Of a DNA stretch of 64,000 nucleotides, positions 3,688 to 53,169 are shown piece after piece. Numbering within the stretch: position 1 is the first letter of the stretch; every line of letters starts with the position of its first letter. The notes beneath the pieces were generated by a model, which saw nothing but the letters and a program-made list of their open reading frames with translations, was not told the origin of the DNA and did no database searches. This stretch comes from Mustelus asterias (Eukaryota): the NCBI RefSeq assembly GCF_964213995.1, contig NC_135805.1, forward strand, positions 134,044,001 through 134,108,000, in the 5' to 3' direction. Both the position numbers and the translations under genes were made by a program.

Positions 3688-3920
3688 ATGACCCTGGACA
3701 CTCCAAGCCTGCAGGTCATCATTGTGCACCCTTCTTCAATCACCTTTGATGCTCCCTCCATCACCCTTGACCGTCTTCCCACCATCTTTGGTCAACTGAT
3801 TGTCAAAGTAGGACTATCTGGCACCACACTGGATCTGTCCACCTTCACCCTCGACATGCCAAGCATCATCTTCAACCTTCCCTCTATCACTAGTGACCTG
3901 TTCTCAATCACCCTTGACCT
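3688..3920 (+). repeat. Degenerate 21-bp tandem repeat (about tccatcacccttgacctcccc)
   Basis: 7-residue periodicity (SITLDLP-like) in ORF 3688-3957; repeated atcaccc/tttga motifs. Confidence 0.6.
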
Positions 3921-4860
3921 CTCCCTATCATGCTTGATCTCCCCCTATCATGCTTGATCTCCCCCTATCGTGCTTGATCTCCCCCTATCGTGCTTGATCT
4001 CCCGCTATCGTGCTTGATCTCCCGCTATCGTGCTTGATCTCCCCCTATCGTGCTTGATCTCCCCCTATCGTGCTTGATCTCCCGCTATCGTGCTTGATCT
4101 CCCCCTATTGTGCTTGATCTCCCCCTATCATGCTTGATCTCCCCCTATCGTGCTTGATCTCCCCCTATCGTGCTTGATCTCCCCCTATCGTGTTTGATCT
4201 CCCCCTATCGTGCTTGATCTCCCGCTATCGTGCTTGATCTCCCCCTATCGTGTTTGATCTCCCGCTATCGTGCTTGATCTCCCCCTATCGTGCTTGATCT
4301 CCCGCTATCATGCTTGATCTCCCCCTATCGTGCTTGATCTCCCGCTATCGTGCTTGATCTCCCCCTATCGTGTTTGATCTCCCGCTATCGTGCTTGATCT
4401 CCCGCTATCGTGCTTGATCTCCCCCTATCGTGTTTGATCTCCCGCTATCGTGCTTGATCTCCCGCTATCGTGCTTGATCTCCCCCTATCGTCTTTGATCT
4501 CCCGCTATCATGCTTGATCTCCCCCTATCGTGTTTGATCTCCCGCTATCGTGCTTGATCTCCCCCTATCGTGCTTGATCTCTCCCTATCGTGCTTGATCT
4601 CCCTCTATCGTGTTTGATCTCCCGCTATCGTGCTTGATCTCCCCCTATCGTGCTTGATCTCTCCCTATCGTGCTTGATCTCCCCCTATCGTGCTTGATCT
4701 CCCCCTATCGTGCTTGATCTCTCCCTATCGTGTTTGATCTCCCGCTATCGTGCTTGATCTCTCCCTATCGTGCTTGATCTCCCCCTATCGTGCTTGATCT
4801 CCCGCTATCGTGCTTGATCTCCCCCTATCGTGCTTGATCTCTCCCTATCATGCTTGATCG
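3921..4860. repeat. Minisatellite, 47 x 20 bp (ccccctatcgtgcttgatct)
   Basis: Directly visible in-register tandem array with few substitution variants (cccgct, ctccct, tgtttg, atca). Confidence 0.98.
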
Positions 4861-17879: not shown

Positions 17880-18202
17880 ATAACAACCAATTTAAGATTA
17901 TCCGTTCAACTCAGTGTGACTCACTAACATTTGATAAGAGCGACATATATTCATGCACAGGAACCTGTCCTCTGCAGGCAAAGGGAACATGTCCAGTCAT
18001 TGCCCCTTGTTTGAATTAAACAAAAGCATTGGGAACAATAGTTAGTACCCTGGTGTTTGCTCCAAGGCTACACCTGAACCAGAATCCACCTGCCAACCAA
18101 TCAGCACCCTTTTCTCCTGTAGTGTAAATTATTGTTCAGTTTGAAATTTGGCACTCTTGCATCTGTCTTCATGAGTACAAGATAAAAAGCTTCAATAGCT
18201 TA
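17880..18202 (+). mobile_element. Old Penelope-like 3' fragment (family 3)
   Basis: Hand translation NQFKII...ATYIHAQEPVLCRQREHVQSL resembles Penelope endonuclease C-termini; decayed hammerhead-like ttcatgagtacaagataaaaagctt. Confidence 0.55.
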
Positions 18203-18455
18203 CTCTATTCCTGGTGTTAGAAAGCCAATGCGCAGAGTTGCTCAGGCAAGCCCTTAATCCATCTTCTTGCTTGCTCCAAAAAACAATTAAATTTAATTCA
18301 TGGTCTCCACGGGGGGGCTTTCAAGATCCAAGCTGACAAGAAAGGGCATTTCACCTGATCTTGGGCCTGATCTGACGCTTGACCTAAGCCAAAAGGCAGA
18401 AAGCGATAAAACCTTCTGCACTAGATATTCCCCGGGGGTCTCCCATCCAAGCACT
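18203..18455 (-). pseudogene. 5S rRNA (3' part, 18408-18455) fused to near full-length U2 snRNA-like sequence (18203-18407), copy 1
   Basis: Minus strand: gcttggatgggagacccccggggaatatctagtgcagaaggtttt then ATCGCTTTCTGCCTTTTGGCTTAGGTCAAG...TTTTTTGGAGCA...AGATGGATTAAGGGCTTGC...GCGCATTGG...CCAGGAAT. Confidence 0.85.
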
Positions 18456-18879
18456 CTGTGTTCAGCAATAATTTGTATTTTATAAAAATTAGTTTTCAAT
18501 TCTGTACAGTAAACAAGTATATGTAATTATATAAATAATTGAATGATTCAATTGTATTATTGACTGCCCATAATAACATTTTAATTTGCTCAGGTCGGTA
18601 GATAACATCAAAATGTTTTGCTAAGTCACAACTGTCCCAAATCTACAAAGATAAGTATAATCTCACATTGAATGTTATCTTTAGCTGGGAAACTCGTTCT
18701 TCACAGGTGAGTGCTGACAAAGTAACTCAACCACAGAGAACATCAAACCCAAGCTCGAACCTGCCATTAGGCTACATTCTGATGACAGTCATTGGATAAG
18801 AACAGGATGCCTGGCCAATTTCCATTCCCAAATCCAGAGCTGCTGGATTGAGGTCAATATGATCAATTATTGCAGTAAG

Positions 18880-19165
18880 AAAGTAAGTAAAGTTTATTTA
18901 TTAGTCACAATTAAGGCTTACATTATCACTGCAATGAAGTTACAGTGAAATTCCCCTTGTCGCCACACTCCGGCGCCTGTTCTGGTCAATGCACCTAACC
19001 AGCACATCTTTCAGGCTGTGGGAGGAAACCGGAACACCCGGACGAAACCCACGCAGAGACAGGAGAATGTGCAAACTCCACACAGACAGTGACCCAAGCC
19101 AGGAATTGAATCCAGGTCCCTGGCGCTGTGAGGCAGCAGTGCTAACCACTATGCCACCGTGCCAC
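18880..19165 (-). mobile_element. V-SINE, alternative-tail subfamily
   Basis: Same structure as 2555-2860. Confidence 0.85.
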
Positions 19166-19342
19166 TCACAGAAATAGTCACTGTTCAAAGGGGTACAGCA
19201 CTTGCAAAATGGTCAGTGGACCCATGGTCCCAAAGACAATGCTTCAAATCTCAAGTTGACCAGTGCTATTTGCACTGTTTGCTCGTTTCCCCAGGAAAAT
19301 CATTGACTCAGGAATTAATCAGAATTCCCAGTTGACTTTTTT

Positions 19343-19605
19343 GCTTATGGCCATACTAACCTGAAAATGCCCGATCTTGTCCAATCTCTGAAGCTAAATA
19401 GGTATAGGACAGGTTAGTACTTGGATGGGAGACCCCCTGGGAATATCTAGTGCAATAGGCTTTATCGCTTTCTGCCTTTTGGCTTAGATCAAGCGTCAGA
19501 TCAGGCCCAAGATCAGGTGCAATGCCCTTTCTTGTCAGCTTGGATCTTGTAAGTCTCCCTTGTGGGGACCATGAATTGAATTTAACTGGTTTTTGGAGCA
19601 GGCAA
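19343..19605 (+). pseudogene. Full-length 5S rRNA-like sequence (19343-19463) fused to the 5' portion of a U2 snRNA-like sequence (19464-19605), copy 2
   Basis: gcttatggccatac...ccgatct...gaagctaa...ggttagtacttggatgggagacc...gggaata...taggcttt is colinear with vertebrate 5S; followed with no spacer by atcgctttctgccttttggcttagatcaag, then the Sm-site region ggtttttggagcagg. Confidence 0.9.
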
Positions 19606-23663: not shown

Positions 23664-24706
23664 CAGAGGGTGGTGGTCGATGGAAAATTTTCGGATTGGA
23701 GGCAGGTTGCTAGCGGTGTGCCGCAGGGATCAGTGCTTGGTCCTCTGCTCTTTGTGATTTTTATTAATGACTTAGAGGAGGGGGCTGAAGGGTGGATCAG
23801 TAAATTTGCTGATGACACCAAGATTGGTGGAGTAGTGGATGAGGTGGAGGGCTGTTGTAGGCTGCAAAGAGACATAGATAGGATGCAAAGCTGGGCTGAA
23901 AAATGGCAAATGGAGTTTAACCCTGATAAATGTGAGGTGATTCATTTTGGTAGGACTAATTTAAATGTGGATTACAGGGTCAAAGGTAGGGTTCTGAAGA
24001 CTGTGGAGGAACAGAGAGATCTTGGGGTCCATATCCACAGATCTCTAAAGGTTGCCACTCAAGTGGATAGAGCTGTGAAGAAGGCCTATAGTGTGTTAGC
24101 TTTTATTAACAGGGGGTTGGAGTTTAAGAGCCGTGGGGTTATGCTGCAACTGTACAGGACCTTGGTGAGACCACATTTGGAATATTGTGTGCAGTTCTGG
24201 TCACCTCACTATAAGAAGGATGTGGAAGCGCTGGAAAGAGTGCAGAGGAGATTTACCAGGATGCTGCCTGGTTTGGAGGGTAGGTCATATGAGGAAAGGT
24301 TGAGGGAGCTAGGGCTGTTCTCTCTGGAGCGGAGGAGGCTGAGGGGAGACTTAATAGAGGTGTATAAAATGATGAAGGGGATAGATAGAGTGAACGTTCA
24401 AAGACTATTTCCTCGGGTGGATGGAGCTATTACAAGGGGGCATAACTATAGGGTTCATGGTGGGAGATACAGGACGGATATCAGAGGTAGGTTCTTTACG
24501 CAGAGAGTGGTTGGGGTGTGGAATGGACTGCCTGCAGTGATAGTGGAGTCAGACACTTTAGAAACATTTAAGCGGTTATTGGATAGGCACATGGAGCACA
24601 CCAGGATGATAGGGAGTGGGATAGCTTGATCTTGGTTTCAGATAAAGCTCGGCACAACATCGTGGGCCGAAGGGCCTGTTCTGTGCTGTACTGTTCTATG
24701 TTCTAT
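23664..24706 (+). mobile_element. Young CR1 (HER1-like) LINE, 5'-truncated, open RT C-terminal ORF
   Basis: ORF 23670-24629 (319 aa) with GVPQGSVLGPLLF and KFADDTK motifs; (ttctatg)n-type tail. Confidence 0.95.
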
Positions 24707-51894: not shown

Positions 51895-52150
51895 AGTTAA
51901 AAATTTGTTTATTAGTGTCACAAGTAGGCTTACATTAACATTGCAATGAAGTTACACTGAGGGAGAATTTAGCAAGGCCAATGCACCTAACTGCACGACT
52001 TTCAGACTGTGGGAGGAAACCGGAACACCTGGAGGAAACCCACGCAGACAAGGGGAGAACGTGCAGATTCCGTACAGACAGTGACCAAGCGGGAATCGAA
52101 CCCAGGGTCCTGGCGCTGTGAGGCAGCAGTGTTAACCACTATGCCACCAT
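51895..52150 (-). mobile_element. V-SINE, alternative-tail subfamily (internal deletion)
   Basis: Same head, core and tail as 2555-2860. Confidence 0.8.
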
Positions 52151-52233
52151 AGTTTTGGTTAGTCCTCAAAAAGAAACTGCACTTGGCAGTTCCCATTCCA
52201 AAATGTGCTGCCATGCATTGAACTTAAGACAAA

Positions 52234-53169
52234 AAGGTAGTTGGATCAGCAAATTTGCTGATGATACAAAGATTGGAGGTGTAGTGGACAGTGAGGAAGG
52301 TTTTCAAAGCTTGCAGAGGGATTTGGACCAACGAGAAAAATGGGCTGAAAAATGGCAAATGGAATTTAACGCAGACAAGAGTGAGATATTGCACTTTGGA
52401 AGGACAAACCAAAGTAGAACGTACAGGGTAAGTGGTAGGACTCTGAAGAGTGCAGTTGAACAGAGGGATCTGGGAATACAGGTACAGAATTCCCTAAAAG
52501 TGACGTCACAGGTGGATAGGGTCGTAAAAAGTGCCTTTGGTACATTGGCCTTTATAAATCGGAGTATCGAGTATAAAGGTTGGAGTGTTATGGTAAGGTT
52601 ATATAAGGCATTGGTGAGGCCGAATTTAGAGTATGGTGTATAGTTTTGGTCACCTAGTTACAGGAAGGGTGTAAATAAGGTTGAAAGAGTGCAGAGAAGG
52701 TTCACAAGGATGTTGCCGGGACTTGAGAAGCTGAGTTAGAGAGAGAGATTGAATAGGTTGGGACTTTATTCCCTGGAGCGTAGAAGAATGAGGGGAGATT
52801 TGATAGAGGTGCATAAGATTTTGATGGGTATAGATAGAGTGAATGCAAGCAGGCTTTTTCCACTGAGGCTGGGGAAGAAAAAAACCAGAGGGCATGGGTT
52901 AAGGGTGAAAGGAGAAAAGTTTAAAGGGAATATCAGGGGGGGCTTCTTCACGCAGAGAGTGGTGGGAGTGTGGAATGAGCTGCCGGATAAAGTGGCAAAT
53001 GCGGGGTCACTTTTAACATTTAAGAAAAACTTGGACGGGTTCATGGATGAGAGGGGTGTGGAGGGATATGGTCCAAGTGCAGGTCAGTGGGACTAGGCAA
53101 AGAATGGTTCGGCACAGACAAGAAGGGCCAAAAAGCCTATTTCTGAGCTGTAATTTTCTATGGTTCTAG
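52234..53169 (+). mobile_element. CR1 LINE 3' fragment
   Basis: WISKFADDTKIGG...LYKALVRPNLEY with in-frame stops; ttctatggttcta tail. Confidence 0.92.

Follow-up and report, generated by a model that had tools for sequence, protein, structure and literature searches.

A one-off 5S rRNA-U2 chimera built on an abundant U2-derived repeat in the shark Mustelus asterias

The 5S rRNA-U2 fusion in the genome of Mustelus asterias is most likely a retrocopy of an ordinary sort that arose once and was rearranged on the spot, and its U2 half is a copy of a dispersed repeat, here termed family 1, which we estimate to be present in thousands of copies. Coordinates at the locus refer to the stretch of 64,000 nucleotides that was analysed (the window), in which two copies of the fusion, A and B, lie in opposite orientation. 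Our main reading, to which we assign a probability of roughly three in four, is that one copy of the U2-derived repeat was joined to a whole 5S sequence by a jump of the reverse transcriptase and was later partly duplicated by a local inversion. A U2-derived repeat of a kind described so far only in crocodilians is likely what hosts the 5S sequence in this shark.

Layout of the 5S-U2 locus

Copy A opens with a full-length 5S rRNA-derived head (19343 to 19463, plus strand) that ends in TTT and scores 71.3 bits against Rfam RF00001 (gathering threshold 38), in keeping with the original prediction of a sequence colinear with the entire 5S rRNA. This head is identical to the array 5S of the same genome at 99 of 121 positions, with 22 differences. 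Base 1 of U2 at 19464 directly abuts the 5S end, and the predicted join with zero spacer is seen at 19463/19464. The body that follows (19464 to 19605, plus strand) belongs to family 1 and covers consensus positions 1 to about 150 (1-153 by BLAST), with 140 of 154 aligned columns matching the consensus; its 3' part is missing, which amounts to ~65 bases at the end of the unit.

Copy B lies on the minus strand and has the complementary defect. Its head (18408 to 18455) comprises 5S bases 74-121 only, as judged from BLAST against the array 5S (83%) and from alignment with A, and lacks bases 1-73 and hence box A and the intermediate element. Its body (18201 to 18407) is a whole family-1 unit, positions 1-215, with 175 of 206 columns matching the consensus; it lacks the usual tail of the family, a mixed A/T stretch with at least 16 A/T in the next 20 bases that is present in 51 of 72 copies. 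The predicted inverted twin with the same junction is thus there, although its 5S part is incomplete. The Rfam U2 model scores the bodies of A and B at 20.6 bits (E 0.22) and 31.6 bits (E 0.00049), both under the gathering threshold of 46, so that of the two expected Rfam assignments only the 5S of copy A stands above its cut-off. The U2 origin of the body is nevertheless settled by alignment to the genome's own U2.

The two copies are 91% identical over 190 bases. With a standing for 5S bases 1-73, b for the 190 bp in common and c for the 3' end, A consists of a and b, B of b and c in the opposite orientation, and the plus strand reads reverse c, reverse b, spacer, a, b. By sequence inspection, the spacer between the two heads measures 887 bp (18456 to 19342). 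The segment 18440-18880 is single-copy, a genome search returning itself and one 50-bp match. The right half of the spacer looks by eye, unaligned, like a tRNA-headed SINE. An assembly artefact is ruled out by the 9% difference between A and B. A linked arrangement of genes for 5S and U2, of the sort seen in some fishes, was likewise rejected: the true arrays are distant or on other contigs (5S, 427-bp unit, contig C5, 29.3 Mb; U2, 1833-bp unit, contig C24, 178-190 bits), and there is no spacer here.

U2-derived repeat families

The 215-bp unit of family 1 is colinear with the whole of U2. Its consensus is identical to the genome's U2 in 136 of 175 columns (78%) and departs from it by three insertions (24, 12 and 4 nt) and by a loss of about 8 nt in the last stem-loop, near the 3' end. 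The longest insertion, at 19493 to 19516 of copy A (plus strand), is the extra AGATCA-repeating segment that had been predicted for both copies; it is present in both, spans 24 nt relative to the genome's U2 and marks the whole of family 1 rather than the chimera. Similarly, tcttgtcagcttggatcttg, taken earlier as a non-canonical mark specific to the chimera, turned out to be a trait of the whole U2-derived family. The original interpretation had overlooked that the U2 half is in itself an abundant repeat.

The alignment retained 65 of 74 loci, with three duplicates removed, and the consensus excludes L092, L097, L098, L099 and L105, four of which belong to the second family described below. 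Mean identity to the consensus is 91% in 57 copies. A 23-nt pattern over the 24-nt insertion yielded 411 exact matches and a second family-1 pattern 705, the controls giving none in either case, and cross-recapture of 5/30 and 1/30 leads to a rough total of 4,000 to 12,000 copies. Since so much derived structure is shared in these exact matches and the copies stand at 91% to one consensus, the family is not the sum of separate U2 retrocopies. Its U2 head, shared derived structure, length below 500 bp and A-rich tail make it, on sequence grounds, probably a repeat of the SINEU kind.

Direct repeats of at least 8 nt flank 7 of 39 full-length copies as compared with 5.2% of mismatched control pairs, an enrichment that concerns a minority of copies. 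No common target flank was found among 58 family-1 copies, with two adjacent upstream pairs and none downstream. In two loci, L115 and L123, the ~180 bp immediately upstream agree at 83%, which could be a shared extension, the same target repeat or a segmental duplication. Rfam U2 scores of family-1 copies range from 31 to 44 bits, below the gathering threshold of 46. Minimum-energy folds of U2 and of the consensus were informative for the first hairpin only. A functional U2 gene was considered for the body of the chimera and rejected: the branch-pairing motif is altered when seen against the genome's U2, as had been predicted, the base preceding the T5G run in the family is mostly G (42 of 56 copies, with A in five), the 5S occupies the place of the promoter, and the genuine U2 array scores 178-190 bits.

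Eleven matches to a looser junction pattern represent a second, composite family of about 330-400 bp (family 2), in which two U2 5' pieces enclose a middle part and are followed by a body akin to family 1. These copies (L091-L093, L096, L098-L103 and L106, each at about 1500-1900 of its locus) carry an A tail, and 5 of the 11 are flanked by repeats of 10-17 nt, a count made without control. Family 2 looks younger than family 1. In a relative of this family, L200, the middle part (1578-1600) scores weakly as U4 bases 25-47 (E 0.18) and may be a U4-derived segment. Among the dispersed matches to a canonical U2 motif, 13 of the 20 that were inspected are, by eye, an extra U2 5' piece stacked on family 2. 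Locus L144 (1179-2134, minus strand) contains two tandem units, each with the family-2 middle, true U2 to about base 95 and a LINE-like frame. The frame presumably resembles the C-terminus of a Tx1/L1-type ORF2 and offers a lead to the partner LINE; a Pfam search with it gave no match.

Uniqueness of the junction and recurrent head capture

All genome-wide counts come from searches of the 3.68-Gb assembly and are lower bounds. With up to three mismatches allowed, the 32-mer spanning the A/B junction has two matches, both at this locus, which is the outcome that the original prediction had itself named as speaking against a dispersed element. The looser pattern matched 17 times, with a 5S end only in A and B; a generic pattern of 5S end plus U2 start matched twice, in A and in locus L033, and missed B. 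Another pattern proved too loose (1480 matches versus 1288 in the control), and its 30 loci were excluded as family copies. A search with the 278-nt query, in which 40 of 3030 candidates were scored, included 5S only for the two window copies among the 41 matches listed, the other 39 starting at query position 114 or later, in the U2 part only, on many contigs. None of the 79 sampled family-1 copies with a 5' end carries a 5S head.

The fusion at L033 involves a 5S variant with a 10-nt deletion, has one T at the join and sits on another subfamily. Because it differs in 5S variant, T count and subfamily, L033 is, judged by sequence, a separate junction event unrelated to A and B. The same 10-nt deletion occurs in the dispersed 5S copies L022, L033 and L036 and in the 5S gene of some units of the C5 array (L040). 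Dispersed 5S copies are also represented by L035. In two further loci, L034 (1432-1550) and L036 (1504-1612), 5S is joined to a tRNA-headed SINE, each within another repeat; the outer flanks fit one interrupted repeat in each case, with 8 and 1 supporting loci.

Other small RNAs take the place of the 5S on family 1 as well. By BLAST, the 79 sampled copies include one with a whole U6 and two with U1 pieces, to which local alignment adds a third U1 piece (L191), and a U1 pattern gave five matches, three of them on family 1. U1 5' pieces serve as heads at L188, L191, L193, L197, L199, L200 and L201 and end at different bases (14, 33, 37, 38, 44 and 47), which fits with repeated capture. At L028 (1432-1763, minus strand) a whole U6 is joined to family 1. 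What we take by eye to be a tRNA-Asp-like 3' part lies directly upstream of this U6, ARAGORN finding no tRNA, and the locus is possibly a triple chimera. Given the absence of 5S from 79 copies, the confinement of the A/B junction to this locus, the independent L033, the U1 and U6 heads and the occurrence of 5S on another SINE, the 5S head is not part of family 1, and head capture is recurrent and unselective, in line with the account of SINEU-2 (PMC4494074).

State of the 5S head

Measured against the array 5S, four base pairs in copy A are changed on both sides in a compensatory manner and five pairs are broken, under a 5S pairing scheme that we assume here; four compensatory pairs would have a probability of about 0.001 under random change. 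The compensatory pairs suggest that the donor likely came from a second functional 5S class and that the copy decayed afterwards. Some of the 5S changes shared by A and B, such as that at base 106, may accordingly be traits of the donor and not decay. No 5S class with these pairs was found. A second functional 5S class is reported for elasmobranchs (PMC3123226).

The state of the promoter bears on the claim that 5S and U2 form a SINE family amplified from the internal 5S promoter. Within the limits that we take box A, the intermediate element and box C to have, copy A is changed relative to the array at 6/15, 2/6 and 1/18 positions, respectively, the well-kept box C being the feature in favour of a Pol III-amplified element now at low copy number, together with the existence of two junction events in the genome and the fact that the searches score part of the candidates. 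The remaining observations point the other way: the diagnostic junction is found only at this locus, none of 79 copies is 5S-headed, L033 is independent, the promoter is damaged in A and mostly absent in B, and two T runs lie inside the body of A. One is the T4 run already noted in the prediction (19477 to 19480, plus strand), which lies 14 bases beyond the 5S and may stop Pol III, and the other is an additional T5 run in the Sm-site region (19590-19594, plus strand). We regard a 5S-headed SINE as highly improbable. Pol III read-through from the 5S across the body is unlikely, and both copies are predicted to be inactive.

Origin of the chimera

Within the U2 part, copies A and B have seven rare substitutions in common (any other of 58 copies has at most two of these), as well as deletions of 1 nt and 7 nt. 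These shared changes identify them as products of one event and substantiate the proposal that both descend from one already-diverged chimera. In the mechanism that we infer, a LINE enzyme would begin, by target priming, to copy a family-1 RNA from its tail, reach base 1 and then jump, at the RNA level, onto a 5S RNA at its 3' U tail, with the tail and the duplications suggesting an L1/Tx1-type partner. After decay of the chimera, a single inversion of ~1.15 kb comprising spacer, a and b, with b duplicated at one break, would have converted an ancestral layout flank-a-b-c into the order seen today. The spacer would then be the sequence that once lay upstream of the 5S and was reversed by the inversion. 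The flanks of the predicted pre-inversion junction match nothing in the 679 kb examined. This result weighs against our reading, as do the lack of a tail in B and, described below, the unrecovered target-site duplication and the uneven private changes of A and B.

The sense, end-to-end join of two RNAs is seen in A and in the independent L033. The same architecture could also result from two steps at the DNA level, in which a 5S pseudogene came first, a U2-derived repeat inserted later at its 3' T run, and a local duplication followed. This sequence of events would be consistent with the dispersed 5S copies in the genome (L022 and L035), with the fact that no target-site duplication spanning the whole chimera was recovered, and with the bases after the 3' end of B, which by eye resemble the 5S end (GAAGCTTTT versus AAGGTTTT/TAGGCTTT) and are a candidate decayed duplication. 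Against sequential insertion, U2 base 1 directly follows a 5S end in two separate events, 58 family-1 copies share no target flank, and U6 and U1 heads arise likewise; we consider it unlikely. Around the inferred original element no target-site duplication was recovered, the gapped score of 7.5 being equalled in 6 of 46 control flanks, at a locus that is old and rearranged. None was recovered around L033 either, and a flank-contiguity test gave nothing for either the window or L033.

The opposite orientation of A and B also invites comparison with a single retrotransposition in which a longer read-through RNA (spacer, 5S and U2 unit) underwent twin priming, or with B being a copy of A that was retroposed close by and truncated at its 5' end. 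Private changes are lopsided, with 3 in A versus 14 in B (P 0.013), six of those in B falling in one 17-nt cluster, and this excess would fit a retrocopy, as does the 5' truncation of B. Both variants require a parent locus, and none was found for a retro-duplication because the spacer is single-copy. Moreover, B has no tail, A's missing 3' end would call for a further deletion, and random insertion less than 1 kb from the parent in 3.68 Gb is very unlikely, which makes this group of explanations quite improbable as a whole. Twin priming does yield opposite orientations (PMC11838501), and it would give the same a-b-c geometry.

Within the reverse-transcriptase route that we prefer, the step at base 1 can be specified further. 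Base 1 of U2 RNA is capped, and ligation of the two RNAs fits less well than a jump if base 1 of the family-1 RNA was capped as in U2. RNA ligation is named as another route for U6/L1 chimeras (PMC11838501).

Comparison with known retroposons

The closest counterpart of family 1 that we found is the crocodilian SINEU-3 (PMC4494074), likewise a short dispersed repeat derived almost wholly from U2, with shared internal rearrangements, a break after U2 base ~31-32, an A-rich tail, internal T runs and thousands of copies at ~90% identity to the consensus. SINEU-3 differs by a ~50-bp deletion, a non-U2 3' end and its targeting of Mariner-N4_AMi (PMC4494074), whereas family 1 follows U2 from end to end, has its own insertions and shows no shared target; the two are set apart here by description. 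Both SINEU-1 and SINEU-2 display repeated independent 5' additions of U1/U2, ascribed to template switching as here, although the RNAs added to the shark family include whole 5S and U6 (PMC4494074). The same paper found no SINEU outside crocodilians and left the mode of transcription open, and a 2017 review treats SINEU as crocodilian (PMC5381603). Among the listed papers that mention SINEU, none deals with sharks by its title. The term snRNA is absent from the accessible portion of the elephant-shark SINE paper (PMC5499810).

In U6/L1 chimeras (PMC11838501), as here, the retroelement is headed at its 5' end by a full-length Pol III RNA in sense orientation. Their 3' partner is a truncated L1, whereas the shark 5S is joined to base 1 of a SINE-like unit of full length. 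Human 5S/L1 chimeras, unlike copy A, are for the most part truncated and in antisense (PMC11838501). Like SINE3, the chimera is a retroposed unit that begins with 5S sequence, and it differs from SINE3 in that A and B were not amplified as a unit, have a damaged promoter and contain internal T runs. A literature search that covered sources other than Repbase, Dfam and most subscription papers found no published 5S+U2 element or shark U2-derived SINE. The U2-derived families are probably new members of the SINEU kind, in a comparison that leaves Repbase and Dfam aside.

Taken alone, the 5S-U2 chimera has little weight, being one decayed insertion. The host repeat is more telling: with thousands of U2-derived copies, a composite family that looks younger and many head captures in a second lineage of vertebrates, snRNA-derived SINEs would cease to be a crocodilian oddity. 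The shark family would also provide material for finding master loci and the partner LINE, and would serve as a warning that repeats inflate the counts of U2 and 5S genes in such genomes. A broader reading, tentative and in our view somewhat short of an even chance, would be a shark radiation of snRNA-built retroposons absent from Repbase/Dfam and independent of crocodilian SINEU. It would comprise the U2 monomer with its thousands of copies and a U2/U4-like/U2 family, whose RNAs would routinely gain U1, U2, U6 and 5S heads, the 5S chimeras being failed starts of Pol III SINEs halted by the T runs of U2. If this reading is true, the birth of SINE heads and the promoterless transcription of SINEU become testable across shark genomes.

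The remainder of the window contains a minisatellite at 3913-4859, with a 20-bp unit in 47 copies. Two RVT_1 fragments, at 23664-24629 and 52122-52643 (Pfam E 1.5e-13 and 2e-4), are likely LINE remnants.
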